Positions 5,869-21,818 of a stretch of DNA of 64,000 nt are shown here, piece after piece. The translations under genes and the position numbers were made by a program. Within the stretch, counting starts at the first letter, position 1. Each line of letters begins with the position of its first letter. The notes beneath the pieces are model-generated. The model was given only the letters and a program-made list of their open reading frames with translations. It made no database searches and was not told the DNA's origin. The stretch spans positions 41,299-105,298 of the IMG/VR virus record IMGVR_UViG_3300037258_000375; one strand, given 5' to 3'. The stretch is from a virus.

Positions 5869-6525
5869 ATGGAATTCCCCGATCTTGAAAAATTGGACGA
5901 CATAGCGCTCATGAAAGAAGTCGTTGCTGAGAACGGCGATGCGCTCGCGGTATTATTTGACCGTTACCACAACAGGGTTCTTAGTGTAGGGCTCAGAATT
6001 CTCAAGAATCGCGAAGAAGCTGAAGAAGTAATGCAGCAGGTATTTTTAGAAGTTTGGCGTGTAGGAGCAAAGTTCGATCCCGCAAAGGGAAAGTTCTACA
6101 CGTGGTTGATGCAATACGCTTATCATCGAAGTCTTAATCGGAGGCAGAGCCTTATCTCTCGACGTTTCTGGAGTCATTGCGGCTTCGACATATTCGCCGG
6201 GATGCGTGCAGGGAGCGACGATAAGGTTAATCGGCGATTCCGCGATGGCACCTTTGAGCCGCCCGAGGAGTTAATGTTGCGGCCTCAAGGTGAGTGCAAC
6301 CGGCTCGTGGAGGAAGTGCTGAAGGCATTGAATGAAGAACAGCGACATGCAATTCGCCTTGTCCACTACGAAGGCATGAGTTTGAAAGAGGCTGCTGAAG
6401 TAGCTAACACGCCTTTTCACAATATGCGTCACCATTATTACCGGGGTTTGCAAAAGATGAAAAAGCATCTTTCTATACTTGCTCAAAAAAACAAAAACTT
6501 GGACACTCTCGGAGGAAAATCGTGA
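5869..6525 (+). CDS. ECF-type sigma-70 RNA polymerase sigma factor
   Basis: region 2 (LFDRY..AEEVMQQVFLEVW..FDP.KG.F.TWL) and region 4 (L.HYEGMSLKE.A). Confidence 0.9.
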   Translation: MEFPDLEKLDDIALMKEVVAENGDALAVLFDRYHNRVLSVGLRILKNREEAEEVMQQVFLEVWRVGAKFDPAKGKFYTWLMQYAYHRSLNRRQSLISRRFWSHCGFDIFAGMRAGSDDKVNRRFRDGTFEPPEELMLRPQGECNRLVEEVLKALNEEQRHAIRLVHYEGMSLKEAAEVANTPFHNMRHHYYRGLQKMKKHLSILAQKNKNLDTLGGKS

Positions 6526-6854
6526 GCGAATTTATGACCGTGGACCATCCGCGAGCTTTCGAGGGTATGACTCTCGATCCTCACAAAGAGTTGCGGATCA
6601 AGCACTATCCGGAAGAGACGCATCTATGCCCGCTCTGCAAGGGCTACGGCGGATGGCATCTCCAGTTCGACGCCTACGGTCCAGGCAAGCACTTTGACTC
6701 TAGTTGCTTCCAGTGCAACGGGTGGGGATACGTCTCGGCAAAGGATGCAGATCACATACATAAGTACGGTCCAGGCACTACGGTAGGGCACTGCCTGAAT
6801 AACTATACCTGTGAGATTTGCAATCAAGTACGCACTGTCGATTCGAGCGACTGA
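6522..6854 (+). CDS. CxxCxGxG zinc-finger protein
   Basis: CPLCKGYG, CFQCNGWG, CEIC. Confidence 0.6.
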   Translation: MSEFMTVDHPRAFEGMTLDPHKELRIKHYPEETHLCPLCKGYGGWHLQFDAYGPGKHFDSSCFQCNGWGYVSAKDADHIHKYGPGTTVGHCLNNYTCEICNQVRTVDSSD

Positions 6855-7366
6855 AATGAAGCGGCGGGTCGTCATCGAAGTGTGGGAGTGTGAGTGCTCG
6901 CAGTGCGGGCATCCGCGAGACCGATACAAGCCTTGGTACAGTCTCGCGAAGCGTCCTCCGCAAGAATGCCCTGGTTGTGGATCGCGTGAATGGGACGGCA
7001 AGAAGATCAAGCACAAACCGGGGGCGAAGCCGAAGATCGAATTACCAAAACCAGTTCGAGTGAGAGCTACCGAGGGGGACGAATGCTAAAGAGTGTTTTC
7101 TTGATGCTTCTATTGGTCGTTGGATGTGAAGTGACGGACGAATCCAAGGCCATTCACGTGATCGGAACAATAACAGCCGTGGAAAATGACGGCTCCTTCG
7201 ATCTGGAGAATAGCCAGTCCAAAATTATCCATTTCGATAGGTGCTGGGAACAGATCGGCCACTTTGATGTATGGAAAAATGAGCGCGTCGATCTCAATCT
7301 GCAAATCAAGGTAATGAATGGAGGACAGTGCGCCTTTATTGTTTCCTCTACTGATCTGCACTGAAA

Positions 7367-7954
7367 GTGAGGATAGCTATGATTAAAAGCTGGAAGCAAG
7401 ACCACGGTATAAGCAACGGCCCTGGAATCATCCTTGTCAATTCCAAGTACGTCCACAACGTCGCGGCGGCGATCCGCGCGGCGTCTTGCTTTGACGTGAC
7501 TCGGCTTGTGTGGACGGGCAGCCGCGTCAATCCCGATCTACTCGACCGCCTGCCTCGCGAAGAGAGGATGAAGGGCTACAAAGACATCCTGTGGACACAC
7601 GACGTCAAGGACCGGCCCTTTGATTTATTCTCGCCTCGCGTCGTTCCGGTGTGCGTGGAGTTGCTCGAAAACTCCGAACCGCTCACAACCTTCGAACACC
7701 CTGATAACGCTGTGTACGTGTTCGGACCTGAAGATGGGGGAGTGCCGCAAGTGCTGCGCCGCTTCTGCCATCGCTTCGTTCACATTCAATCGAACCACTG
7801 CCTCAATCTTTCGGCAGCGGTGAATGTGGTTCTTCATGACAGAAAGTCTAAACGGCAGATCGCGGGCCTTGAGCCCATCTTGCCAACCGGCGAAATGCTC
7901 AATGAACACAGAGGCCCGATGGAGATTGCCATAGCGGGATGGGATGGGTACTGA
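7367..7954 (+). CDS. SpoU/TrmH family RNA methyltransferase
   Basis: NVAAAIRAA, VFGPEDGG, CLNLSAAVNVVL SPOUT motifs. Confidence 0.88.
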   Translation: MRIAMIKSWKQDHGISNGPGIILVNSKYVHNVAAAIRAASCFDVTRLVWTGSRVNPDLLDRLPREERMKGYKDILWTHDVKDRPFDLFSPRVVPVCVELLENSEPLTTFEHPDNAVYVFGPEDGGVPQVLRRFCHRFVHIQSNHCLNLSAAVNVVLHDRKSKRQIAGLEPILPTGEMLNEHRGPMEIAIAGWDGY

Positions 7955-8369
7955 ATGCTGACCAAATTCTGGACGGTATGCAAACCATGCAACGGACGCG
8001 GTGAAGTCAATCCAAACTCTCCACATGCGCGCAAGCCGCCGAAGATGACCGGAGAGATTACGGATCGCACCACGAGCGTTTGTAAGAAGTGCTCCGGGTG
8101 CGGGATGCAGTGGAATATGACGAGGGGGAAATGATGAGAACTTGGTGGATTGCTCCTGGTGACAATGAAAAAGTGATGCGCGGTGACGAGGTGATCGCTA
8201 CCATCACAACAATGAAAAGCGGGAACTATCGCTGGGACGGAATGAATATGTATCGTGAAAACTTCTTAATGAAGGACCATATCTTGGAGGACGTCAAGTA
8301 TTTTTACCGCTACCCGCACCGTCGCAAAACTGTCATCACATTTAAGAGCGGCAGAAAGGTCGTGCTCTG

Positions 8370-8588
8370 ATGAGCGACCGCTGGTATAAGAATCACCGCC
8401 TGGAGTGGATCGCCGAGATGCTCCGCATTTATGGCTTCATCAACCGCGAGCACGTGATGCGGAAGTTTGGCATCTCGACACCGCAAGCTTCGAAAGACCT
8501 GAACGACTTTCAGAAGAAGAATCCGAACGCGGTGAGTTACGATCTTAGCGTTAAGAAATTTATTGCTCGGGATGGACGGAAGATATGA
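8370..8588 (+). CDS. small HTH protein resembling N-terminal HTH of WYL regulators
   Basis: G.INR..VM.KFGISTPQASKDL..F...P....YD.S.K. Confidence 0.7.
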   Translation: MSDRWYKNHRLEWIAEMLRIYGFINREHVMRKFGISTPQASKDLNDFQKKNPNAVSYDLSVKKFIARDGRKI

Positions 8589-9283
8589 CTGCATCGAATG
8601 AATCCGAAGTTTACCGCGCGGTCTGTTACATGCGCTGCTCAGGCGATGGCCAGATTCTCGGAGACACCTGGGAACGCCAGCGCGAGGTGATCTTCAAACA
8701 CGCCTTGGCGAACGACTTTGACGTGGTTGAGGAGTTCCGAGACGAGGGTGTCACCGGCAAGATGGAACTGGAGAATCGCGCAGGGCTGTCCGCTTGTATG
8801 CAGTTCATCCAGGCGAACAGCATCAAGTTGGTCTTGGTCGAGTCCAGCGACCGGCTCGCCCGCGACATGATCGTGGCTGAGGTCATCGTGCGCGAGTTCC
8901 AGAAGATCGGCGTCAAGGTGATCGCGGCCTCGGGGGGTGTGGACCTCACCGCAGGCGACGATCTGAATCCAACCGCCAAGCTGATCCGGCAAATCCTCGC
9001 CGCAATCGCCGAGTTCGACCGCTGTGTCACCGTGCTCAAGCTGCGCGGCGCGCGCGAGCGCATCCGAAGCAAGAACGGGAAGTGTGAAGGCCAGCACGCC
9101 TTCGGCGAGAAGCCCGAAGAGCATGAGACCATGGAAGCGATTAGAAATTTCCGCGCCATCGGATGGACCTGTAAGACGATTGCCGACACCCTCAATGAGC
9201 GTTCTTTCCGGACCCGCTCCGGACGGCCTTGGCACCGATCCACGGTCGCGAAGATTCTCGCGCGTAAAGCTACCACCAACTAA
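8585..9283 (+). CDS. serine recombinase/resolvase with C-terminal recombinase HTH
   Basis: YMRCS, DEGVTG, R.GL, DRLARD motifs. Confidence 0.9.
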   Translation: MTASNESEVYRAVCYMRCSGDGQILGDTWERQREVIFKHALANDFDVVEEFRDEGVTGKMELENRAGLSACMQFIQANSIKLVLVESSDRLARDMIVAEVIVREFQKIGVKVIAASGGVDLTAGDDLNPTAKLIRQILAAIAEFDRCVTVLKLRGARERIRSKNGKCEGQHAFGEKPEEHETMEAIRNFRAIGWTCKTIADTLNERSFRTRSGRPWHRSTVAKILARKATTN

Positions 9284-9947
9284 TCTTCAGATTGCTTACC
9301 AGGATCGACCAAGGCGCGCCAGCCGGTAGACTTCCCAATTGCACCTGGACGTACACGCCCGGAGTCCAGTTGCTGGCCGTGGCGGGCATGTTGCCCAGCG
9401 ACGTCGGAACCTGGGACACCATCTTGTCGCACTCGTAGCTCACCACAGAGCAAGTCTTCGCTGTGAGGTTGAACGAGTACGCCCACTTCACTTTGTGCTG
9501 CACGTTCGGCTTGAGCGCACCCAAGAGCAGCCCGGTCGAGGTCCAGTTCCCGATGTCGATCTGGCCGGTCGCCACGTGGCGCTGGCCGCTCAGGTTGTAC
9601 TTCATCCCACCCGTGACAATCAGGAGATCGGTCTCGATCACGTTCGCGTTGGTCGGGGTACCGGCGTCGATATCCAGGCCGTACGACAGAGACACATTGC
9701 CGGTGTTGACAGGAATCTGCCGAGGCTCGGCCACGCCGTTGAGCACACCGGCCTGCGCCGGGTAAAACTCGACGGCAGGGTACGACCCAGGCTGGCTGTT
9801 TCCCGAGGTCCAGCAGAGCAGGGTGGTTTTCTTGGCGGGCACTAGACGGGACCCGTAGGCGAGAGGGGGAACGCCCCCTATCGGGGTCGCCGCAGTGTTG
9901 ACATGGACACCCCACAAAGTGGTCGGATCGAGCCGGTCGATGAGCAT
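9270..9947 (-). CDS. hypothetical beta-rich (lectin-like) protein
   Basis: AGGAG RBS; beta-strand-rich composition. Confidence 0.55.
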   Translation of the reverse strand: MLIDRLDPTTLWGVHVNTAATPIGGVPPLAYGSRLVPAKKTTLLCWTSGNSQPGSYPAVEFYPAQAGVLNGVAEPRQIPVNTGNVSLSYGLDIDAGTPTNANVIETDLLIVTGGMKYNLSGQRHVATGQIDIGNWTSTGLLLGALKPNVQHKVKWAYSFNLTAKTCSVVSYECDKMVSQVPTSLGNMPATASNWTPGVYVQVQLGSLPAGAPWSILVSNLKISWW

Positions 9948-10111
9948 AAAGTCTCCTGGACTTTATGATGCACCCAAATCGATCCAAAAACACCCTAAAA
10001 GCGACCGTGGAGCGGCACATGAACTGCGCTTACTCTGCGCTTTTCGACCCCGTTTCGCCGAAGAGACGTGTATGTCACCTGTAAAGCTATCTACGTGTAA
10101 TTTCTATCGCT

Positions 10112-10606
10112 TCACTCCGGGAACAGGCCGTACTTTGGCTCTGTGGAAAGCAGCCCGCTCGACGCTTTTCGCAACTCTTCAGTCGGAACGTCGAAAAAGC
10201 TCTGCTTTCCGGCCCACGGGATGGGGTTTCTGAGCTTGATTGGATCGCGCAGAACAAACGCATAGCGGAGCTTTCTGTCGTCTCCATATTGCCGGTAGTC
10301 GCCCCACACGATCTGCCATGGTTCCCTCGCCGGAGCGACGTCGCAAGCGGGCTGGCAACGCACGAGATCGACGGTGCCGATGATGCACCCAAAGGGTAGC
10401 TGAGACCACTTCATACCCAGCATCGTGAGCTTCGGCTCGTAGAACGCGCGAGTGCTTTTGTCCTGGTGCTTGGCCGCGTGGATCGCGATCCGGCCCCGGA
10501 CGGCGGTCGGCCAGCCGCGCGTTTCGTCCGGCTTTACCATCCGGCCCTGGTCGTCTTTCTCGAAGATGACGGACGCCCACGGCTGCCATAAGCTGAGGCA
10601 CTTCAT
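10112..10606 (-). CDS. ASCH domain protein
   Basis: LSLWQPWAS..K.ETR.W....RG.IAIHA, G.IIG.V.L, G.Q.FF. Confidence 0.88.
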   Translation of the reverse strand: MKCLSLWQPWASVIFEKDDQGRMVKPDETRGWPTAVRGRIAIHAAKHQDKSTRAFYEPKLTMLGMKWSQLPFGCIIGTVDLVRCQPACDVAPAREPWQIVWGDYRQYGDDRKLRYAFVLRDPIKLRNPIPWAGKQSFFDVPTEELRKASSGLLSTEPKYGLFPE

Positions 10607-10616
10607 ATCAGGCTCC

Positions 10617-11381
10617 TCACGTTTTCCGACTCCACCGCTGGATGGGATTGATTAGCTCGATGTCGTCCGGAATTCTTTTGCCGAGGTAGAGCGCTTCGTC
10701 TGTGCGCGCATAATCCGTAATGGGGATCGGCGTACAGTGTGGAAAGGTGCCAACCGCCGCGATGATCTTAAAGTGGTTTTTGAGCGTCTCTCGCGCCTTC
10801 TCTGAAATCTGGAACCAGTCATCAACCATAACCTCTTGACCGCATCCTCGGAGGCTGTGAAGCTCCTCACTCCCGACGAAGTCAAGGCGGGCGAACTGAT
10901 GGGGGCGTCCTTCGCGGAGACGGCGGCGGGCAGCTTCGGCGATGATGTTCTCTTTGTGCGGAGAGATGATCGTGATGTGGCTCTGCGTTTGACTTGCGAC
11001 CTCTTCCGCGCTATCGAACAAGGCGGTGGTCTTTCCACTGCGGCGCTCGCAGTGCAGAACTGTTCCCTGCCGAAACGCGTCACGCATCATGCCGGTGCGT
11101 ATTGTCACAAGCTCAGGCGAGGGGCTTGTGCAAGATCGCATGTGATCGTCCAGCCTGTCGATGATATTGTGCGCGTACGTATGGAACCGCCGTGCATACT
11201 CCACGAACATCTCGCGCGCAACTTCGACCGGGATCGCGTCACATCTATGCTGCGCTTGCTCCTCGTAACTGTTGAGCATCCGGTTAAAGTGTTCTTCATC
11301 TGGATCGCGGCGTCGCGAAAGAGGAAGCATCGCTGGCTCAAATTTCTCGAACGGGCTTATTGAAAAATACTCCATTTGCAA
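10617..11381 (-). CDS. hypothetical protein with P-loop-like segment
   Basis: RRSGKTT and LRG...VMVDD. Confidence 0.5.
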   Translation of the reverse strand: MQMEYFSISPFEKFEPAMLPLSRRRDPDEEHFNRMLNSYEEQAQHRCDAIPVEVAREMFVEYARRFHTYAHNIIDRLDDHMRSCTSPSPELVTIRTGMMRDAFRQGTVLHCERRSGKTTALFDSAEEVASQTQSHITIISPHKENIIAEAARRRLREGRPHQFARLDFVGSEELHSLRGCGQEVMVDDWFQISEKARETLKNHFKIIAAVGTFPHCTPIPITDYARTDEALYLGKRIPDDIELINPIQRWSRKT

Positions 11382-11425
11382 TTATGGAACTATCGAGGTC
11401 GCCGATTTTCAAGCAGTCCTCTTGT

Positions 11426-11962
11426 TTATGCCCCGCGCGAAACAGTGAGAGAATCAATTTCGCCGAATAGTTCATATATATCATCCCAGTCTGGTGGATC
11501 GTAATCTTCTTTCTCCTCGTTCCATTTACCGCAAAACGGATTCACGCTCACTGATGTGCAGTGCAAACCAATCCCCGGTACATCCGGATTCGACAAGAAA
11601 AGCTCTCGCAGCGCTGGCCAGTGATTGACATTATCCGATGGAATCGAAAAGTCTTCGAGAAATACCTTGATCGCGTCGGCCATGCGCGGGTAGTCCTTCT
11701 TCGCGACATAAGCACGATCAAAGGTAAGCATGAAAACGGCTTTGTGCTCCGTTTTTACGCGCGGGTCTTTCCAGAGATTCCACAAGGTGTCCCCGAGTTG
11801 CATGTAGCCCTTGTTCGGGTGGTCATAAGACCTCGTTACGCTCAGATAGCGAGCGGCCATCAGTTCCCAAATTATCGGAGCCGACCCCCAGCTATTGCCG
11901 TATTCATCCAGCACGTCCACCCTATCTCCTGGATAAACTGCTATAACATCCGTCTGGCTCAT
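11426..11962 (-). CDS. hypothetical protein
   Basis: coupled ORF starting MSQTDV after GGAG. Confidence 0.6.
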   Translation of the reverse strand: MSQTDVIAVYPGDRVDVLDEYGNSWGSAPIIWELMAARYLSVTRSYDHPNKGYMQLGDTLWNLWKDPRVKTEHKAVFMLTFDRAYVAKKDYPRMADAIKVFLEDFSIPSDNVNHWPALRELFLSNPDVPGIGLHCTSVSVNPFCGKWNEEKEDYDPPDWDDIYELFGEIDSLTVSRGA

Positions 11963-12195
11963 GTCGTCATCTCCCCGAGCTTCTCCTTCGTCTCGTTGAA
12001 CTGCTTTCTGTTGTAGAGCAGCAGACAAGCTATAAGCTCTCCGGTTACGAGGCTGCCAACCACATCCCCGGCAATGCCCATCGTGACCTGGGTGCCCAAG
12101 CGGCACTTCGTCGCTTGCACAACGTCTACGCCAAGGCGGATGTCCAGATTATCGTCGGCCATCTTTTTCAGTACATCGAAACTGTTCACTGGCAT
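11959..12195 (-). CDS. small hypothetical protein
   Basis: GGAGG RBS; coupled to next gene. Confidence 0.55.
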   Translation of the reverse strand: MPVNSFDVLKKMADDNLDIRLGVDVVQATKCRLGTQVTMGIAGDVVGSLVTGELIACLLLYNRKQFNETKEKLGEMTT

Positions 12196-12382
12196 CCTAT
12201 TCCTCCGTCAGAGCCCGAGCGTCTTCCCAGCGTACGGCTCTTTCTTGTCTTCTGACTCTTCATCGTTCACGTGAATATCTTCAAAATACGTGGCCACGCA
12301 CTTGATGATTCCAATGACCAAACAGAGCGTGAAAATCGCGGCTGGGAATAACAGTTCCCAAGCGATCCGAACCTCGATATAT

Positions 12383-12880
12383 TCACGCCAAGTGATTGCG
12401 TGATCCACTCAGACTCCTGGGCGGTGGTCGTAGCCCCGCTTTACGTTCGTCGCGAAATCTTTGTTGCTTTTGCCGCTCACACTCTCTACATCTACGTGAT
12501 CCTTTTCGCGAGTCGATTATTAGATTCTCTCCCTCATAGGGATGACCGCGTGGACAGTGAGTTTTTCTGCTCTCTTTATTGTTTGTCACTAGGTCAGCAT
12601 TAAGAGCCTGCTCCCGAGGAGTTGCCCACCGACAGTTTTCAGCGGTGTAATCTCCATTATTGTTTTCACGATCTAATGTCTTCCCTGGTGGTCGTTCGCC
12701 CATGTCTGCATAAAAATTCGCGAAACTGTTCTGCCAGCGTTCACAAATCTTTATCCCACGTCCGCCATAGCGCGGGTATTTGTGGGATTTTGAATTGAGG
12801 CATCGTTCTTTCATTGCGCGCCACGAACGATACGTCCGCGTTTCTCCCTGCTTTCGCGTGCTGTGCCCATGTTTCTTCAT
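12383..12880 (-). CDS. HNH-type homing endonuclease
   Basis: Y.SW.AMK.RC..YGGRGI.IC.RW..F..F..DMG.RP...TLDR.NN.G.Y...NCRWA; KTHCPRGH. Confidence 0.88.
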   Translation of the reverse strand: MKKHGHSTRKQGETRTYRSWRAMKERCLNSKSHKYPRYGGRGIKICERWQNSFANFYADMGERPPGKTLDRENNNGDYTAENCRWATPREQALNADLVTNNKESRKTHCPRGHPYEGENLIIDSRKGSRRCRECERQKQQRFRDERKAGLRPPPRSLSGSRNHLA

Positions 12881-13647
12881 ATTGCCGACATCGGATCATC
12901 AAGTGTATGCTGCTGAGCGCGTTTCCAAAAGTCATGCTCATCTGCCCTGATAGCCAATAAGTCCGCCAACACTTGGTCTGATGGCGGATATACGCCCACG
13001 TGGGTGCCTTGATACCAGCCGAGACAATGGGAACACAAGGCTGCGAGAAAATGGAAATAGACCTTGTCCGCTTTTTTCTCCGGCTTCAGCGCGAGAGTGG
13101 GAAGGCCCTTGCGCAGGCAGTACATCACGCCAGAGCGCTTGCTCTTCTCCAGAAAGGCCCCGGCGAGAATGTAGCTGTCATGCTGCACTTCGTTGAGACG
13201 CCGGAGCAGTGCGCCCATGGCCTTCCACTCCGCAACGGGCTTTACCGCTCCGGCTTGGCAGATCATCGAAGTGATGTACATGTCGAGACGTTCGTTTGTG
13301 GTCACGAACTTCTCCACGATTGCGCCCTTCGAATGCTTCGCCACCGCGATTGTTTTTGGCCGCGTCGTCCAGACATTCACGACCATAGGCGAGTCGTCCT
13401 GCTCATCGACGTCCGAGGTGGAGCACACGCGCACTTCAGGAACGCCATTCATCGAGACAGGCACATCGTGACCGTGCTTGTCGGCAAGCGGGCAGCCCTT
13501 CGCAAGAACGATCTTGCGATCCTGGTCGAAGATGCTCACGATGGGCACGCCGTGGTGCCAGCCGCGCGCTTTGCAGAGTTCATGCACGCCGGATCGGAGA
13601 GATTCCCAGGTGAGTTCTCCCTTGATGGGCAGTAGGTCTGTGGCCAT
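12877..13647 (-). CDS. conserved LCxH protein, paralog of 20470..21123 (candidate Ubl partner enzyme)
   Basis: shares AE..A..L...L...Q...Y...G.F, LCxH, P..D....LL..R.DE..F...A with 20470..21123. Confidence 0.7.
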   Translation of the reverse strand: MATDLLPIKGELTWESLRSGVHELCKARGWHHGVPIVSIFDQDRKIVLAKGCPLADKHGHDVPVSMNGVPEVRVCSTSDVDEQDDSPMVVNVWTTRPKTIAVAKHSKGAIVEKFVTTNERLDMYITSMICQAGAVKPVAEWKAMGALLRRLNEVQHDSYILAGAFLEKSKRSGVMYCLRKGLPTLALKPEKKADKVYFHFLAALCSHCLGWYQGTHVGVYPPSDQVLADLLAIRADEHDFWKRAQQHTLDDPMSAI

Positions 13648-13648
13648 A

Positions 13649-14014
13649 CTATCCTCCACTTCGCGGCGCAATCGCCACCGTTCGTCCAGATTCCGGACTC
13701 ACTCTCCCATACGATGCCCTACGTGGCAGCCCCTTCGGCCTGCCACGGCCTTTCTTGCGAGGCACTGTCTCCACGGCTTCATCGGGAGTTTCCTGTGTGT
13801 CCAGGCGAATCATGAGCTTGTTCGTCACCGGATCGTAGCCCAACACCCTGTACGTGTGAGTCACATCGCCGATTTCCCTTTCGAGAAAGACGGCGGACCC
13901 GGACTTGATGAGATCGCCGACGAGCTTGGCAGCTTGCTTGCGGCCATCCTCGTTCGTTGTGTCGATCTCTGAGTTGTCATCGCCGGAAAAGCTATTGAGG
14001 ATTTGGATATTCAT
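13649..14014 (-). CDS. Gly-Gly-terminated small protein with AT-hook insert, paralog of 21564..21818
   Basis: ends APRSGG; KKGRGRPK; aligns by eye to 21564..21818. Confidence 0.7.
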   Translation of the reverse strand: MNIQILNSFSGDDNSEIDTTNEDGRKQAAKLVGDLIKSGSAVFLEREIGDVTHTYRVLGYDPVTNKLMIRLDTQETPDEAVETVPRKKGRGRPKGLPRRASYGRVSPESGRTVAIAPRSGG

Positions 14015-15147
14015 ATGACCACCTCTGAGTACAACACCCGTTCTATCGCGCTCGGTCCATGTGCCGTGATGGCCACAGGCACACGTAGGTTCGCCGCCAT
14101 CGAGTAGAGAAAATCAACTTCCGACTCACCGATACGTGGCAGGTAGTCTAGGTGGCTCACTGCGAGGTAATCGACACCGCCGATGATTCGGAGAGCCCGC
14201 CGCGCCATGTTGAAATCGAACTGCCCCACCCGAAACTTTCCCTGAAGCGAGCTATCGGAGTTGTGTAGCTCTGGCAAATCGAGCGCTGGGTCTTCGCTCG
14301 GGAACGGACCGGCACCGTGGCGCGTGTAATAGCTGCGCAGGCAGCCGACGCGGGTACGCTCTTTGACTTTCGCTTCATCGAGAAGTGTATTCGCATTTTC
14401 GAAGGTAGTGTTCGTCCAGGTGTTGTGCGGCGCGGTGCCGTACGTCTCATCGAGCATCACGCCCTGTGCGCCCTCAAAGACCATGCATTCTTCCGGCTTG
14501 AAGTGATCGACGATCTTGGCTGGCCAACTCTCGAAGTCGGCCATGGTCCGGCTGAGAACTGCTATGTCTTTGCTGCGATGAATGACGATGCCCAGTTCTT
14601 CCCGAAGCTTCACGATCTCATCGAGAAGCATATCCGAGATAAATGTGAGCTTACGGCGGAGCGTGACCAGATTCTGCGTGTCACCAGCGTAGGGAACATA
14701 GAGCGGGTGCTTTATCTGCATCTCTCGCGCCACACCGATGCCCATTCCGCAGCTTCCATGTCTTGCATCGCCGCGCGCCATCTCGCGAAGTTGATTGAGA
14801 TGCTTATGAAACGGCGTGACCAGGAGCGCTCTCTGATCGACTGTGGTGCGGTCCCATACGTCTCCCGCCAGATTTGAAAGCTCTTCTGCCTCTCGCATCA
14901 TCGACACCGGATCGATAACCATGTAGCGCGAGAGAAATGTCTTCACGTGCGGGTTCGCCAGTGTTCCCGCTCCAAACTGCGCGAAGGTGTGGTGGTCTCC
15001 CTCTGGAGTAACCACGTTGTGCGCCGCCTGAGAGCCGCCGTTATAGCGCACCACTAGATCGACCGGATATTCACGACATAATTTATCGACACATGCCCCC
15101 TTGCCTTCGTCTCCGAAGGCAAGTCCTGCCACAAGAAATGCTTTCAT
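14011..15147 (-). CDS. adenylosuccinate synthetase-like (PurA family) protein
   Basis: GDEGKG, RYNGGSQAAHNV, GSCGMGIG, EGAQG..LD, TRHGAGPFP. Confidence 0.9.
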   Translation of the reverse strand: MKAFLVAGLAFGDEGKGACVDKLCREYPVDLVVRYNGGSQAAHNVVTPEGDHHTFAQFGAGTLANPHVKTFLSRYMVIDPVSMMREAEELSNLAGDVWDRTTVDQRALLVTPFHKHLNQLREMARGDARHGSCGMGIGVAREMQIKHPLYVPYAGDTQNLVTLRRKLTFISDMLLDEIVKLREELGIVIHRSKDIAVLSRTMADFESWPAKIVDHFKPEECMVFEGAQGVMLDETYGTAPHNTWTNTTFENANTLLDEAKVKERTRVGCLRSYYTRHGAGPFPSEDPALDLPELHNSDSSLQGKFRVGQFDFNMARRALRIIGGVDYLAVSHLDYLPRIGESEVDFLYSMAANLRVPVAITAHGPSAIERVLYSEVVI

Positions 15148-15426
15148 TTATTCCCCCAGGTTCTTTATACACACCGTAAATGCAGTGAGCGGGCGGTTCG
15201 GCCTCCCGTCCGGGCGAAGCGGATGCGTGTCGCTGATCTGACGGTAGAAGGTCATAGCCTGCGCCCCATCGTCGAATCGCTTCGCCTCGGCGAGGTTGAA
15301 GGTCGTAGTGAGATCGCCATGGCCGTCGTGACCGTTAGGGTCGTACGTTTTCACATACGACCCCTCCAGTTCGGACGGCAATGACTCAAGCCCGCCAAGC
15401 CGTTCGATTTGGATAACGGCGCTCAC
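15148..15426 (-). CDS. hypothetical protein
   Basis: coupled ORF within operon. Confidence 0.55.
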   Translation of the reverse strand: MSAVIQIERLGGLESLPSELEGSYVKTYDPNGHDGHGDLTTTFNLAEAKRFDDGAQAMTFYRQISDTHPLRPDGRPNRPLTAFTVCIKNLGE

Positions 15427-16361
15427 AGACGTGCGGCCTTGCCTGCTCCGGACGTCGTCAGCGCAGCCGCCGCGTGCGCGCTGTGCTTCACCAGGGCATG
15501 TGCTTCGTGATCGCTCACGCCGACCGCAACCAGATCGTCAACGACCGAGTCTGCCGACTTCTCTTCACAGAGAGCGACGGTAGAGGCGATGAGTTCGCAA
15601 ATCAGGTTCGCGTGCTGCAACACAAGAACAGACTCTTCTCCGAAAAGCTTCTTGTATTGCTCAAACGAGTGCTGATAGGAACCGTGCGGCCAGATCACGA
15701 AAATGGTAAAGTTGCGGCGTGCTTCTTCGATGATCTCTGCGATGGGGATGTCGGCCTGGATGGTATCGCCGAACACAGCGTGGACATGCTTTTTCCCCAC
15801 TTGATCGAAGATCGGCTCGTCTGCGAACATGAAGAAGTATCCCTTCTTGTCACGCTTCTCCAGGCAATCGAGGCTGACCTTGCGCGCCGCCGCATAAAGC
15901 AGCAGATCGTAAGACTCGCCGTGATTAGAGCCGCCTTGGCCGACAAGCCAGATGTTCCGGATGTGCTCATCCACGCGGATATCGCTCTCGAAGTCCGAAA
16001 TCTGGATGCAGTTCTTGCCGACAGAAAAGAAGTCGTCGTTCGCGGCAACGGCAACTTGCGGGTCCGGCAAATACTTATTCAAGAGGTCCATGAGGTTCGG
16101 GAGCTTCTTCTGCGCATCGACGGCGCGGTCGTAGTTCGAACCGGTTACGTCGAACGCGACCAGCACTGCATTCGATGTCGGATGCTCAGCGGAATCCCGC
16201 GATTCAAGCTTGCCGACAGGCTTTGTGTTAATACGCATCGGGTCCAGGTTCGCATGAACCGAACTCGCGGTTGTTGTGTAGGCAAAGTCTGGCGTGCCTG
16301 AAGCACGACGACTTGAAGTTGTACTGTGATATGTACCTGAGTCCCAGCGGCCACCGCCCAT
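15423..16361 (-). CDS. vWA-like domain protein
   Basis: MGGGRW start; FDVTGS MIDAS-like motif; GGSN.GESY; KKGYFF...DE. Confidence 0.8.
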   Translation of the reverse strand: MGGGRWDSGTYHSTTSSRRASGTPDFAYTTTASSVHANLDPMRINTKPVGKLESRDSAEHPTSNAVLVAFDVTGSNYDRAVDAQKKLPNLMDLLNKYLPDPQVAVAANDDFFSVGKNCIQISDFESDIRVDEHIRNIWLVGQGGSNHGESYDLLLYAAARKVSLDCLEKRDKKGYFFMFADEPIFDQVGKKHVHAVFGDTIQADIPIAEIIEEARRNFTIFVIWPHGSYQHSFEQYKKLFGEESVLVLQHANLICELIASTVALCEEKSADSVVDDLVAVGVSDHEAHALVKHSAHAAAALTTSGAGKAARL

Positions 16362-16373
16362 GATTTCCTCCGC

Positions 16374-17417
16374 TTACGTCGGCAAGTTGAATGCGATCCA
16401 CTTCGGAGAGCCGTACTCCTTAGCAGCCGCCTCTTTCCAGTCCTGCAAAACATCTCCAGCTTTCTGGTAGCGTTTCTTATAGTCAGAATCGAGGCACTTC
16501 ACAAGAATTTTTCCCAAGGCGGGCATCCACAACGATCCGCAAAGATACACCATCAACTTCGCGGCCATGTAGATGTCCGAAGCAGGGCCGATGTACTTCT
16601 TAGACAGAAGCTCTGGCGCATAATGGTCCTGCCACGCCGGAATCCAGGATGACAGTCTTGTCCGCTCTTCGTAATTGACTGAATAGCACCAGTCGATCAT
16701 CCGGATGGAGTGCTTGCGTGGATCGACACCGGAGCCTCCGTCGTTATCTGGATAGAACATAACGTGTGGCGGAAGGATCGCCCCATGCACCAGCCGGAAG
16801 TGATGTGTCCATGTCAGTACAGCCAAAATCCTCTTAAACATCCAGACGCCGGTTCGCGTGTCAACATTCTCGATCTTCACGTGAACTTGCTGCGCGGTCA
16901 CGAATCCTGAGAAATTCGTGATGACGTTCGCCTCGCGCTTCATCGTTGCCTCGATCCAGAAGTTGTCGATTAGCACAGGTACGCCTTCGCGGATCGGCCC
17001 GTCAATCTTGCTCAACGCTTTGAGTGCGACGATCTCCGCCCTAAGAAGGTCGTTGTCATCGTGATTTCTCGCAACCTTGATGAGTTCCTTGCCGCCTTCC
17101 GTTGTGTAGAGATCGGCGATGTCGCCGATGCGTGGGTGCGGCTTGGCGTTGTACTTACCGATCTTCAGAGGAACGCAGTGGGGGAGCGGAAGACGCTTGC
17201 CCCAATTGCCTTTCCTTACTCGAATATCGGCCTCATTCTTCAACGCGGAGAGTTGCTGGAACACTTTCGCAGCGAGCGGCTCTGTCGGATGAAAGTCGGG
17301 GTGACAAGACCGCGCGAGCTTCCTGAAGACCACAGACGGATCATCTCCCGATCCGAATACATCCTCCGGACAGCACGCGCTCTCCAGCTTATCGTGCATC
17401 AATTGCAATTCGCTCAT
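16374..17417 (-). CDS. J-domain / Ser-Thr kinase-like fusion protein
   Basis: FRKLARSCHPD; HGAILPPHV, IDW, YAPE, SDIYM. Confidence 0.8.
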   Translation of the reverse strand: MSELQLMHDKLESACCPEDVFGSGDDPSVVFRKLARSCHPDFHPTEPLAAKVFQQLSALKNEADIRVRKGNWGKRLPLPHCVPLKIGKYNAKPHPRIGDIADLYTTEGGKELIKVARNHDDNDLLRAEIVALKALSKIDGPIREGVPVLIDNFWIEATMKREANVITNFSGFVTAQQVHVKIENVDTRTGVWMFKRILAVLTWTHHFRLVHGAILPPHVMFYPDNDGGSGVDPRKHSIRMIDWCYSVNYEERTRLSSWIPAWQDHYAPELLSKKYIGPASDIYMAAKLMVYLCGSLWMPALGKILVKCLDSDYKKRYQKAGDVLQDWKEAAAKEYGSPKWIAFNLPT

Positions 17418-18077: not shown

Positions 18078-19409
18078 CTAGAAGCTACCGCTATCGCCTC
18101 CGAAGCTACCGCTATCCCCGCCTCCGAAGTCCGATGAAGATGACGAGTCGCTGAAGCTGCTACTGCTGCTGTCGTCAAAGCCGCTCGATGACGATGAATC
18201 GCTAAAACTACTGCTACTGCTGTCATCGAAGCTGCTCGATGACGACGAGTCATTCCAACTGCTGCTCGATTCCTCTCGAACCGCGACCGGCTCCGGCTCT
18301 GGAACGAAGACGGGCTCGATGATGGGAACAATGACCGGGCTGGGGCCATAATAACCATCGTCGATGTACGCTGGCCGAGCAGGGGCCTTATTGATGATCG
18401 TCGTATTCGTCACAGACGGAGACGCTGCCGGAGCGGCCTGCGGAGGGGTTGGAGGTGTAGGGCCGGGTTTCGGAACGTCGGGATCAGGATTGCCCGCAGG
18501 AGCGGTAGAGTGGCCGTCGCCGGAATGCCTCGAAGCACTACGATCAAACCGGAACTTGCGCGAAGCTTGAGCTACTTCCGCATCGACTTTGTCGGCAATC
18601 CACTTATAGCGCTTCCCGATCTCCTCGTACTCCTCGATGTCGAGACCTTTCGTATCCGGATTGAAGGTCTCGCTCTGGTTCAACCGGGAGAACTCCTCCG
18701 ACAATGCGTAGTTAGTGCTGTTGATGATCTTCCCCGCCGCCTCGTTCCGCCATAGCACCGCTTGTTGCTGCGCCAGGAGACGCTTGCGCCGGAAGTTAAA
18801 CAGGGCGAGAATACCGATCACGCAACAACCGAGAAGGATCGCGCCAAGCAACCAATCCAGCCATCTCCAAAGTCCGGACATGTCTGTTGCTTGCTTGGTA
18901 ATAACGGTGGTGGCCGGATGTAGAGCCGCCGTTTGAAATGCTTCGATCTGCACTGCGGCTTGAGACATACCGGCAATCATGCCCCGTGTCCAGTCGCCGT
19001 CTCGGAAGGCGGGAGCCATGAACTGCGTGCGGATCACAGACGTATTGAGTGCCCGTCCGAACTCGTTCCCCACAAACAACCCCGCCGCGTGCCGCTTCGG
19101 GAACACGAGGAACACGATCAGGTTGTTCTTCACTCCTCCGCTGGCCGATTGCCACGATGGACACTCCTTCTGTAGTGTGGCGACGTACTGCTCGGGCGTG
19201 GTCTTGGAGGTGTCATCCAAGATCACGCGCGGGTCGGCACCCTTCGCCGCGAGCATAGAAGCAGAATGAACAAGCGCATCACCCTGACCGCTCCTGAGAA
19301 GCGATGACGGGTCCGCGAAAACTGGCGAGTCGCACGAATGCGAAAACACTTGACTCCAGCCCATGGAGGCCAGAGCCACAAATATGCAGGCGATCAAAAC
19401 TCGTCTCAT
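18078..19409 (-). CDS. TPM (DUF477) domain membrane protein with Pro-rich linker and Ser/Gly-rich tail
   Basis: signal peptide; M.PAFRDGDW..G; TM helix; DSSSSS repeats and FGGGDSGSF end. Confidence 0.8.
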   Translation of the reverse strand: MRRVLIACIFVALASMGWSQVFSHSCDSPVFADPSSLLRSGQGDALVHSASMLAAKGADPRVILDDTSKTTPEQYVATLQKECPSWQSASGGVKNNLIVFLVFPKRHAAGLFVGNEFGRALNTSVIRTQFMAPAFRDGDWTRGMIAGMSQAAVQIEAFQTAALHPATTVITKQATDMSGLWRWLDWLLGAILLGCCVIGILALFNFRRKRLLAQQQAVLWRNEAAGKIINSTNYALSEEFSRLNQSETFNPDTKGLDIEEYEEIGKRYKWIADKVDAEVAQASRKFRFDRSASRHSGDGHSTAPAGNPDPDVPKPGPTPPTPPQAAPAASPSVTNTTIINKAPARPAYIDDGYYGPSPVIVPIIEPVFVPEPEPVAVREESSSSWNDSSSSSSFDDSSSSSFSDSSSSSGFDDSSSSSFSDSSSSSDFGGGDSGSFGGDSGSF

Positions 19410-19459
19410 GGAACTTCCTTTCACATCGAGCATTCGAGGGAGGGTTTCCGTGTGGTCGT

Positions 19460-20119
19460 TTATTTCAGTGACGCGAGAAGGGCATCCACTTCAGGGCTGT
19501 TCGCGTTCGATGGTTGAGGCGTTGTGGTGAGTGCCCGGTCAAACTCAGCGCTGGCTACATCGTTGTGGCGGCGCATTCTTTGCTCCACATCATCGACGGA
19601 TTGATTGCCATCAAAGCCAAGTGCGGCATTCGCTTGGGTCAACGCGGAAGCGGCCTGATGCTTTGCCTTCGTGTCCATATCCAGGCGTTCGAGTTCACGC
19701 ACGCGAGCAACCATCAACTGATGCTTCGCGTTCAACAAATCGGCGGACTCCTTCAGCTTGGCCACCACGGTCTGTTGGTCGGTGATGTCGGTACCCATCT
19801 TCGTGAAGTGCGTCGTCTCTTCGACGATGTTTGCGGCCTTCATCCGCGCTGCCTGAGAATTGGGATCGGCAATGAGAATGGCCTTGACTTCCTTCTTCTG
19901 TGATTCAATTTGATTGCCGAGGTCCTGGTATTCGCGGGTGAGCGTACGCAGTCCGCCATCCTGCGCAGCGATTTCGGTATTCATCTTGCCCATCGCGTCT
20001 TCGAGATCACGGCAATACTGACGCACGGCAGATGGTGAGTTCGCGTCAATCTCTTTATCCAGCAGATCATGTGCTGCACCCAGCGTGACGACGCGAAGCT
20101 TTTGCAGAAAACCAGTCAT
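19460..20119 (-). CDS. PspA/IM30 family coiled-coil protein
   Basis: 219 aa coiled coil; D.NSP....QY.RDLE; C-terminal VDALLASLK. Confidence 0.75.
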   Translation of the reverse strand: MTGFLQKLRVVTLGAAHDLLDKEIDANSPSAVRQYCRDLEDAMGKMNTEIAAQDGGLRTLTREYQDLGNQIESQKKEVKAILIADPNSQAARMKAANIVEETTHFTKMGTDITDQQTVVAKLKESADLLNAKHQLMVARVRELERLDMDTKAKHQAASALTQANAALGFDGNQSVDDVEQRMRRHNDVASAEFDRALTTTPQPSNANSPEVDALLASLK

Positions 20120-20159: not shown

Positions 20160-20438
20160 TTACAGTGCCGCTGCTAATTCGTAATCTTCCGCCAGTAGAT
20201 CACTCTGAGAGCACGCCCACGGTACGACGGTTCCCTGATAAGTCATCATGTCTACGTGCGACTGATACTGAATCTCCGTCCCTTCGGGATAGATACCCAA
20301 AAGCGGAAGTCGGTTCACCTGGAACTTAGAGCCCGGAACCAGGAACAGATACATTCCCTTCCCGTTCCAGCCAGCCCGACATACCCGCTCGCCGCTTTGC
20401 AACTGTTCGAGTGCCCATCCTAATCCTTGCTTCTCCAT
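20160..20438 (-). CDS. DUF2829 / Tad2-like anti-defence sponge protein
   Basis: AL..L..G..V.R.GWNGKGM.L.L ... VPW..SQSDLLAED. Confidence 0.85.
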   Translation of the reverse strand: MEKQGLGWALEQLQSGERVCRAGWNGKGMYLFLVPGSKFQVNRLPLLGIYPEGTEIQYQSHVDMMTYQGTVVPWACSQSDLLAEDYELAAAL

Positions 20439-20469
20439 TGATTTTTCCTTCCGCCACAACTGTGGCTGG

Positions 20470-21123
20470 TTATGCTGCTAGTCGAGTGCGATTTGCTATT
20501 TCAAGAAATTTCTTCTCATCGGTGCGCAGCATCAAAAGCTGCGATACCATGTTATCCGCATCCGGCATCCACTCCGACGGATGCGCACACAACCGCAAGA
20601 TCGGTTTGCCCTTCTCGATCTGCTCGATGTTTTGCGACCGCTCCTTCTTGATCCGGTAGATGCGCTCGTTCACATGGGTCTCGAAATAGCCATGGTCTCG
20701 ATACTGCCGAACCTGTTCTGGCTTGAGGATCGTAAACATCAACTGCTCGGCGCGCGCCTCCGCGATCTTTCGCTTTTCGGCTGCCTCGAAACGTGCCGCT
20801 TTCTCTTCGGCTGACTCGGGCGGTTGGCATCCAAGCCCAAGAATGGAAATCATTTGGTTATGATTGTTATTCATCATCTGGCTGTACATCATCTGGCTGT
20901 ACCAGATATTGGCGTTCGAGACGGTTACATAAGACATAGATGTGCCTGTCCCCCCACCTATTGCATAGGCAGAGTCCGCACTCTTCGACGCGCCCCCGAG
21001 CAGCTTTGACCAGTTATTGCTCATTTGATCCACCATCGCTTGCGCGCCATAGGCAGTCCTCGCGCCCTTCACATCCGATCCGTTCAACGCTTTTGAAATC
21101 CACGACTCCGATTTATATGGCAT
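20470..21123 (-). CDS. conserved LCxH protein, paralog of 12877..13647
   Basis: AEARAEQL...L.PEQ..QY...GYF; LCAHP..P..D.M..QLL.L..DE..FL..AN. Confidence 0.72.
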   Translation of the reverse strand: MPYKSESWISKALNGSDVKGARTAYGAQAMVDQMSNNWSKLLGGASKSADSAYAIGGGTGTSMSYVTVSNANIWYSQMMYSQMMNNNHNQMISILGLGCQPPESAEEKAARFEAAEKRKIAEARAEQLMFTILKPEQVRQYRDHGYFETHVNERIYRIKKERSQNIEQIEKGKPILRLCAHPSEWMPDADNMVSQLLMLRTDEKKFLEIANRTRLAA

Positions 21124-21556
21124 TGTCGCTCGCCTTCATCATTCTTTTTGCTTTGTCGAGGAAGGTTTGCTCATCCTTCTTGGGAGGCCATCCGTTGGGA
21201 TCGGACGGTACGAACATCTCCTGGGCCACGACAACCTGCTTGCTAGTTTGTATGCCAAGACATGTGATCTTCCGCACGAAGACGCGCCTCAGACCGCCCA
21301 TCTCCTTCAACTCCTGCTCGTTGTAGAAGACGTGAAATCCGGGAGCATACGGCTTCGAGTCTAATGCGGTGATTTTTTTCCCTGGAGTGTGTTCGTCTGT
21401 GGCGGTGATCCATTTATCCAGCGGCACGTCTGCCGATTTGGCGATGGTGAACTGCTGGAAGGTCGGCTTCCTCGCGGTGCCGCCGAATTCCTTCCAGGCA
21501 TCCATGATGAGGCCCGAAGGATTATCGTATGTCTCTTTGACTATGGAGAGGCACAT
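21113..21556 (-). CDS. hypothetical protein (Y..GFH motif)
   Basis: operon-embedded ORF. Confidence 0.6.
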   Translation of the reverse strand: MCLSIVKETYDNPSGLIMDAWKEFGGTARKPTFQQFTIAKSADVPLDKWITATDEHTPGKKITALDSKPYAPGFHVFYNEQELKEMGGLRRVFVRKITCLGIQTSKQVVVAQEMFVPSDPNGWPPKKDEQTFLDKAKRMMKASDNAI

Positions 21557-21563
21557 AGCTCAA

Positions 21564-21818
21564 CTAACCCCCGATCATGCGCGCATGAAGAATTATGCGT
21601 TCGGCGGTCGGATCGAACGCATTGAGAACCTCACCCTGGTCGCCTTTTTTGCTGACCGAGTAAGCGAGGTAGCCTTTGGCTTTTAGCTCATTGAAACGCG
21701 CTTCCGCCTTGGAAACTTCGGCTGGGTTGTTGCGATCCCATTGCATCCGGGTATCGCCTGTGTCATCGAGTATGTTGAGTTCTCCCCCGTGGGCGCGGTC
21801 AATGATTTCTAGTTCCAT
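21564..21818 (-). CDS. Gly-Gly-terminated small protein (ubiquitin-like candidate)
   Basis: 84 aa ending MIGG; GGAG RBS; first gene after TTGACA promoter near 21896. Confidence 0.72.
   Translation of the reverse strand: MELEIIDRAHGGELNILDDTGDTRMQWDRNNPAEVSKAEARFNELKAKGYLAYSVSKKGDQGEVLNAFDPTAERIILHARMIGG

Follow-up and report, generated by a model that had tools for sequence, protein, structure and literature searches.

A Gly-Gly-tailed protein and its invariant-Cys partner form a conserved, coupled phage cassette, a candidate E1-less ubiquitin-like module

The DNA analyzed here is a 64,000-nucleotide stretch of a viral genome (positions 41,299 to 105,298 of IMG/VR record IMGVR_UViG_3300037258_000375), called the window below, in which a two-gene unit occurs twice, each copy encoding a small protein that ends in Gly-Gly (GG) and a partner protein with a conserved Cys. 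We show that the GG protein and the Cys partner form a conserved, coupled phage cassette, and comparison of their relatives indicates that the GG end, the Cys and one Asp of the partner are under selection at the protein level. Tentatively, we read the pair as a phage-specific, minimal ubiquitin-like (Ubl) and E2-like module that has no activating enzyme (E1) of its own.

A profile of the family-2 GG protein, the type found in copy 2, retrieved 49 IMG/VR loci, 46 of which carry a full GG gene. The partner gene lies downstream of the GG gene and on the same strand in 45 of these 46 loci, its start falling 0-6 nt from the GG stop codon in about 28 loci and an intervening gene being present in about 15 (a homologue of the 147-aa gene of copy 2 in nine of them). 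No other conserved neighbour was seen around the module in the IMG/VR loci. The copy-1 type of pair is adjacent in four out of four phages, and three natural fusions were found among distant family-1 members, single polypeptides in which the GG protein and the partner are joined at ...V-S-V-A-P-V-[SA]-G-G/x, with the slash marking the junction. In copy 1 of the window the partner ATG lies 1 nt past the stop codon of the GG gene, the stop of the upstream PurZ-like gene overlaps the GG start by ATGA, and the start of the downstream HNH endonuclease gene overlaps the partner stop by ATGA, indicating that these four genes are translationally coupled. The ATG at 13647, giving a partner of 256 aa, is most likely the start of this gene rather than the TTG at 13671. 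All genes of the copy-1/copy-2 region are on the minus strand. A preliminary description of the window had proposed a two-gene GG/Cys unit, and the 45 of 46 loci, the three fusions and the presence of the unit twice in this phage bear that proposal out.

The Gly-Gly end is conserved in both families of the small protein. Family 1, the copy-1 type, comprises 32 clusters among 5.8 billion proteins (alignment A1), and all 32 relatives end V-x-x-A-P-R-[SA]-G-G at the very C-terminus, with 28 invariant columns in the alignment; the tail of the copy-1 protein, G-R-x-V-x-[VI]-A-P-R-S-G-G, is invariant over 12 residues. Family 2 has 1287 cluster representatives at E <= 1e-3 (clusters at 50% identity), most of them viral (in the Atlas mostly Uroviricota) and belonging to no Pfam family, and GG is C-terminal in 133 of the best 150 representatives, against a background of about 2% GG endings in the same loci. 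The conservation of GG among homologues, which the preliminary description had made a test of its reading, is found in both families. Copy 1 uses GGA GGA for the two glycines, four bases ahead of the partner ATG, and we considered and rejected GG as a by-product of a GGAGG Shine-Dalgarno sequence for the downstream gene, since only 5 of 41 penultimate codons are GGA. The first terminal Gly is encoded by GGC, GGT, GGG and GGA in 16, 13, 7 and 5 cases and the second in 21, 5, 3 and 12 (n = 41), and this use of all four Gly codons at both positions argues for selection of GG at the protein level rather than as a ribosome-binding site. In a few family-2 members two domains stand in tandem and GG is found only at the C-terminus, in which respect they may be likened to ISG15-like modifiers.

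In the partner, conservation is concentrated on two residues. An alignment of 43 distinct and diverse partner-domain sequences (A6; mean column identity 27%) has only two invariant positions, the Cys (43/43) and an Asp at the start of the last helix (P-x-x-D, 43/43), and the Cys is likewise invariant in sets of 35/35 and 16/16 sequences, as had been anticipated. The LCxH motif that the preliminary description had defined did not hold as such, because its His is present in 38 of the 43 sequences and replaced by Ala, Asn or Ile in the other five, and hence is not essential; the Pro that follows is present in 33. With Cys and Asp as the only invariant pair and the His variable, a thioester carrier fits better than a Cys-His protease dyad. 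The C-terminal ends of the partners are also unusual in composition. An Ala-Ala end was found in 23 of 43 distinct family-2 partners (LAA in 7, RAA in 5, VAA in 3, and others). The tails that lead to it vary in length, all four Ala codons occur in it, and the background is about 1-3%. Each of the 35 aligned family-1 partners has a small-small-Ile/Val end, most often A-G-I. The Ala-Ala end may be an ssrA-type, LAA-like degron or a pseudo-substrate tail. In 41 pairs, the residue that precedes GG and the one that follows the Cys showed no visible covariation.

The two copies differ considerably in sequence. In the copy-1 GG protein, ~75 folded residues at the N-terminus are followed by a basic Gly/Arg linker of ~45 residues and the invariant tail, as seen from alignment A1 and an AF2 model with a predicted local distance difference test score (pLDDT) of 67. 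The AT-hook noted in the preliminary description is present in this linker, in that KKGRGRPKG at residues about 88-100 contains the AT-hook core R-G-R-P, but only about 14 of 32 relatives retain G-R-P-[KR]-G and the remaining family-1 relatives have other basic Gly/Arg linkers in its place. The copy-1 partner has an extra N-terminal segment of 118 aa that is conserved and family-specific, with the motifs RGWHHGxP, AKGCPL and GHD (alignment A2). The copy-2 partner has a domain of ~100 aa with L-C179-A-H181-P and D190, the C-terminal end Ala-Ala (...TRLAA, 20470-20478) and a low-complexity N-terminal half (20782-21123, minus strand) rich in S, G, N, Q, M and Y, whose length and sequence vary strongly among relatives. 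The N-terminal extensions of long partners contain no informative Pfam domains.

Homology of the two partners, proposed earlier from an alignment by eye, was not detected by pairwise BLAST (E 2.1) but was confirmed by hhalign profile comparison (94.4% probability, E 8.5e-8; 99 columns, C-x-H-P and R/T-D-E..F among them), and the copy-1 and copy-2 partners are clearly related by these profiles, as true paralogues. For the two GG proteins the outcome was less firm. Translation confirmed the endings that had been read for them, and the register of the earlier alignment by eye was recovered, but pairwise BLAST found nothing and the profile comparison was suggestive only, at 46.6% and E 2e-4, or 56% and E 1.1e-4 with larger alignments. 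Because both precede homologous partners and both end in GG, the two GG proteins are probable, although unproven, homologues.

The AF2 model of the copy-1 partner has a mean pLDDT of 83.6, with values >90 over residues 120-256. In the model, the C-terminal domain (residues about 119-250) is built of helices, a four-strand meander, a 16-residue loop and a long helix, and the Cys sits at the end of strand 4, ahead of the loop and the long helix. The element order is that of the UBC fold (helix, four-strand meander, helices), in which the catalytic Cys lies in the segment from strand 4 to the following helix. When this domain was compared with 48,161 chains in an exhaustive VIA search, 14 of the 20 top matches were E2, UEV or RWD folds, all of them weak (Z <= 4.6). 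The best was Ubc9 (Z 4.6, root-mean-square deviation 3.0, 83 residues), and further matches included RWD domains (Z 4.0 and 3.7), Atg10 (Z 3.5), UEV domains, kinetochore RWD proteins and FANCL, together with the E2 of a CBASS system (8hsb_B, Z 3.1) and the Bil E2 (8tyz_C, Z 2.7). A second comparison gave similar values, with the Bil E2 at Z 2.7-3.0 over the two. By these matches, which are concentrated but weak, the partner domain may have an E2-like (UBC/UEV/RWD) fold. Of the fold expectations in the preliminary description, a non-canonical Cys enzyme agrees with this weak E2/RWD/UEV likeness, but the beta-grasp fold was not among the top matches of the GG-protein model. Prediction of the copy-1 pair as a complex gave a score of 0.64, with one control at 0.47, and these scores speak neither for nor against binding. 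A BFVD structure search returned only homologues of unknown function.

The terminal GG, the coupled single-Cys partner, the fusion at GG and the tandem variants together bear the genetic mark of a modifier paired with a carrier enzyme. In the corresponding scheme, whose fold assignments, tail-to-Cys contact, chemical steps and target we infer, the small protein would be a modifier with the free Gly-Gly carboxylate as its reactive end, and the partner would act as a strongly reduced E2-like carrier or ligase, accepting the tail on its invariant Cys as a thioester, a step that the invariant Asp and usually also the His would help. From the Cys, the tail would then be passed to an amine on a target. 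Because the phage encodes no E1, activation would fall to a host enzyme, for which a MoeB/ThiF-type adenylating enzyme is the simplest candidate. In the fused forms, activation could instead be supplied by transpeptidation, with the peptide bond that follows Gly-Gly being cleaved, a payment open only to these rare fused proteins.

Several observations weigh against such a module. A free carboxylate forms no thioester without activation, which takes ATP-dependent adenylation, yet an activating enzyme is encoded in 0 of 11 phage records that carry the module; these comprise the 105-kb record of the present phage (89% complete) and ten others, four of which have terminal repeats and are complete genomes. 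No ThiF-type E1 scored above the Pfam cut-off in the 11 records, the single sub-threshold match reaching 15.8 bits. No Prok-JAB domain was found in 6 records and no DUF6527 in 5, and a UQ_con search of the genomes, run without a positive control, found nothing. The earlier statement that E1 and JAB genes are missing thus holds across the whole 105-kb record and in complete relatives. Neither family, represented by up to 71 and 43 members, matches Pfam, PHROG, NCBIfam, PADLOC or PDB sequences. All-Pfam-A scans of the window proteins and the 43 partner-domain sequences gave no E2 family, and no Ubl family of Pfam, NCBIfam or PHROG was matched by the window proteins or the 71 family members, for which profiles also gave no PDB relative. 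A match of one of the 71 members to LPD39 (E 0.0011) had no support in five genomes and was discarded as chance. The structural matches are all weak, in that Z <= 4.6 is below a secure level and such values can reflect a common alpha/beta arrangement, and Foldseek on the partner model gave nothing significant (E >= 0.24), though its list was populated by Ubc13/UBE2N chains. Canonical E2s have their Cys downstream of an HPN motif, whereas the partner Cys stands two residues ahead of H-P (C-x-H-P) and there is no conserved Asn. In the family-1 GG model (pLDDT 67), with the element order b-b-a-b-b-b, Hfq/Sm folds and beta-subdomains of papain-like proteases (calpain) rank first (Z about 5), with a ubiquitin-like domain no higher than rank 43 (Z 3.8). 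Finally, Urm1, SAMP and TtuB belong to E2-less systems that use only a host-type E1 and need no E2, and the role proposed for the partner is therefore not dictated by precedent.

Given the Cys and the nearby His in 38 of 43 sequences, the partner could alternatively be a Gly-Gly-specific Cys peptidase or deconjugase, similar to a deubiquitinase, which would cut after GG, free the GG protein from fusions and, in infection, strip host Ubl conjugates of the Bil, Bub or CBASS type from phage or host proteins, with the GG protein as a product-like regulator or cofactor. A protease is required for the fusions, in which GG is internal, and neither a JAB nor any other candidate is encoded; in E2-CBASS it is the E2 that trims a C-terminal Gly, as a Cys-His protease, deubiquitinases are common in eukaryotic viruses, and a Tad2-like anti-defence gene adjoins copy 2. 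We nevertheless regard this explanation as unlikely. The genes are split and GG is already free in >90% of cases, which means that processing cannot be the chief task. Moreover, 5 of 43 sequences do without the His, and for a mere deconjugase the strict co-inheritance of a GG protein would be needless. The partner model also has no resemblance to papain-like, OTU, UCH or JAB folds.

We judge it similarly improbable that the pair works without covalent chemistry, with the tail as a docking peptide inserted in the partner, the complex as a binder or regulator (such as an anti-defence sponge or, by way of the basic linker, a nucleoid-associated factor) and the Cys as a structural or redox-sensing residue. 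Obligate heterodimers would be expected to show tight coupling and fusions equally, they would explain why there is no activating enzyme, and the family-1 tail, invariant over 12 residues, is longer than a thioester site requires; non-catalytic RWD and UEV domains, moreover, match the partner model about as well as E2s do. What speaks for chemistry and not an interface is the combination of a terminal GG over >1000 clusters with a single invariant Cys and Asp in a fast-evolving domain. That the GG protein is a ThiS/MoaD-type sulfur carrier (thiocarboxylate), with the Cys protein relaying persulfide and phage tRNAs or a cofactor being thiolated, is very improbable: sulfur carriers characteristically end in GG, of the named Atlas clusters a ThiS family comes nearest (score 0.75, a lead only) and the phage has large tRNA arrays, but there is no ThiF/MoeB, neither protein matches Pfam or NCBIfam, including the ThiS/MoaD and sulfurtransferase families, no conserved neighbour could use sulfur, and the internal GG of a carrier-relay fusion would block thiocarboxylate formation.

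The module appears to be confined largely to environmental phages. Among GenBank phages it was found only in one uncultured 595-kb phage and in Virus Rctr197k (KX853510.1, 197 kb), where genes 113 and 112 form an adjacent pair. Within the region 6312-15044, the Rctr197k pair lies between two annotated CRISPR arrays and transposase-like genes, and its GG-like protein is a tandem repeat that ends I-P-G rather than G-G. A search of 185,579 species genomes for cellular homologues gave none with the GG pattern and, with the partner pattern, one short contig of a metagenome-assembled genome without a GG gene. Literature searches found no published description of the module.

The coordinates of both copies and their neighbours are collected in Table 1. 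Upstream of copy 1, the gene described earlier as PurA-like proved to be PurZ-like, but Pfam gave no support for the vWA and J-kinase labels of the same proposed operon. The genes so labelled (vWA, 15423-16361; J-domain kinase, 16374-17417; both on the minus strand) have no Pfam match at E <= 1e-3, and the 347-aa protein of the latter has an H-P-D tripeptide near its N-terminus. The phage probably replaces adenine by 2-aminoadenine (Z genome), as suggested by the homology, and two of its relatives, phages of 134 and 143 kb, carry PurZ-like genes as well. The order PurZ-GG1-partner is shared with one related 134-kb phage and not with two others. A functional link of PurZ with the module was considered and rejected, as PurZ lies 3 kb off in one relative and none is present within 5 kb in another; the PurZ/J-kinase operon link is local synteny in close relatives and no property of the module. 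The HNH endonuclease gene next to copy 1 may be a homing insertion, and a homologue is found elsewhere in the related 134-kb phage. In copy 2, homologues of the 147-aa gene between the GG gene and the partner occupy the same position in the nine loci mentioned above and are absent from most others. The family starts with M-C-L in most members, carries the motifs GWKEF, PLD.W, GFH, RRV and WPP, and has no match in Pfam, PHROG or NCBIfam.

Table 1 Features of the two module copies and of their surroundings, in window coordinates
Feature	Position	Strand	Description	Basis or note
GG protein, copy 1	13649..14014	-	121 aa, C-terminal end APRSGG	ORF (open reading frame) translation
Gly-Gly codons of copy-1 GG gene	13652-13657	-	stop codon 13649-13651	
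Cys partner, copy 1	12877..13647	-	256 aa from ATG 13647	38 relatives, alignment A2, AF2 model
C205-S-H207 of copy-1 partner (L-C-x-H)	13027..13035	-		invariant columns in A2
Invariant Asp224 of copy-1 partner	12976-12978	-		
PurZ-like adenylosuccinate-synthetase homologue (2-aminoadenine pathway)	14011..15147	-	context, outside module	PF00709 4.6e-53, phrog_1211 5.8e-66
HNH endonuclease gene	12383..12880	-	context	phrog_3377 2.6e-39
GG protein, copy 2	21564..21818	-	84 aa, C-terminal end RMIGG	ORF translation
Cys partner, copy 2	20470..21123	-	217 aa	alignments A3, A6; hhalign vs copy 1
147-aa gene between GG2 and partner	21113..21556	-	optional cassette insert	
Tad2-like (Thoeris anti-defence 2) gene	20160-20459	-	directly downstream of copy-2 partner	PF11195 E 2.6e-20
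PspA/IM30 homologue	19460-20119	-	downstream of copy 2	E 7.2e-9
TPM-domain protein	18078-19433	-	predicted membrane segment; long repetitive Ser/Asp-rich tail	

Returning to the pair as an E1-less ubiquitin-like/E2-like module, a wider picture can be drawn that we hold to be rather doubtful. In this picture, many environmental phages, uncultured so far, would carry self-contained E1-less tagging, in which an E2-like domain of ~100 residues loads the Ubl protein on its Cys by way of the universal MoeB/ThiF sulfur-carrier activases of the host or by transpeptidation and, during infection, tags host or phage proteins, and the AT-hook-like linker of copy 1 could steer the modifier to host rather than phage DNA in a phage that probably uses 2-aminoadenine. 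A role in anti-defence or host takeover is a guess, drawn from the restriction of the module to phages and from the Tad2-like gene beside copy 2.

Given the breadth of the family, with at least 1287 clusters at 50% identity and no entry in Pfam, PHROGs, NCBIfam or PADLOC, the nature of the pair matters beyond this phage. If covalent conjugates form, no earlier ubiquitin-style tagging system would be known from bacterial viruses, and none as small from any source, with two small proteins and no E1, E3 or protease, and the pair would bear on the origin of E2 enzymes from sulfur-carrier systems and on how phages answer or exploit the Bil, Bub and CBASS defences. If the association is non-covalent, the pair would still be a large unannotated phage family with an unusual signature at both C-termini, GG in one protein and AA in its partner.

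The proposed reliance on the host for activation has parallels among eukaryotic viruses that encode ubiquitin or an E2 but no E1, such as baculoviruses (v-ubi) and African swine fever virus (E2). In each of these the virus carries part of the cascade, but for v-ubi and the African swine fever virus E2 the homology to cellular ubiquitin and E2 is plain from the sequence, whereas the phage proteins match no known family. Among bacterial systems, the anti-phage ubiquitination system Bil (BilABCD; PMC10557695; PDB 8tyz/8tz0) combines a small modifier with a C-terminal Gly and a bacterial-type E2, with no E3, as is proposed for the phage pair, and the Bil E2 was one of the weak structural matches to the partner. 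Bil, however, is a host defence that needs its own E1 (BilD) and JAB (BilC), whereas the phage module is virus-carried and has neither. In E2-only CBASS, a lone E2 with a Cys and a His trims and captures the C-terminal Gly of cGAS/CdnG without an E1 (bioRxiv 10.1101/2022.05.25.493364; PDB 8hsb), and this system resembles the phage module in having two components and no E1, its E2-fold enzyme acting on the C-terminal Gly of its partner as is proposed for the phage pair; 8hsb_B was among the matches listed above. The substrate there is a large nucleotidyltransferase in which a single residue follows the Gly, and the linkage is paid for by cleaving that bond, whereas the proposed phage substrate, 75-120 aa in length, has Gly-Gly at its end already; the Cys and His positions also differ, the structural match is weak, there is no sequence similarity, and the phage pair is carried by a virus. 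Type I Bub (6E/DUF6527) operons encode BubAB, in which Ubl and E2 are fused and are separated by cleavage behind a conserved Gly (PMC11601596). They differ from the phage module in their JAB peptidase-E1 fusion (BubCD), their DUF6527 protein (BubE) and their oxyester chemistry, and in their location in bacterial defence islands rather than in phages; the phage module has no E1, JAB or DUF6527, an invariant Cys and no sequence similarity to Bub. What the phage module and Bub share is the arrangement itself, in that a modifier, in the phage a candidate one, is followed directly by an E2-type or putatively E2-like domain, fused and split forms occur with the junction at the terminal Gly, and the number of modifier domains varies.

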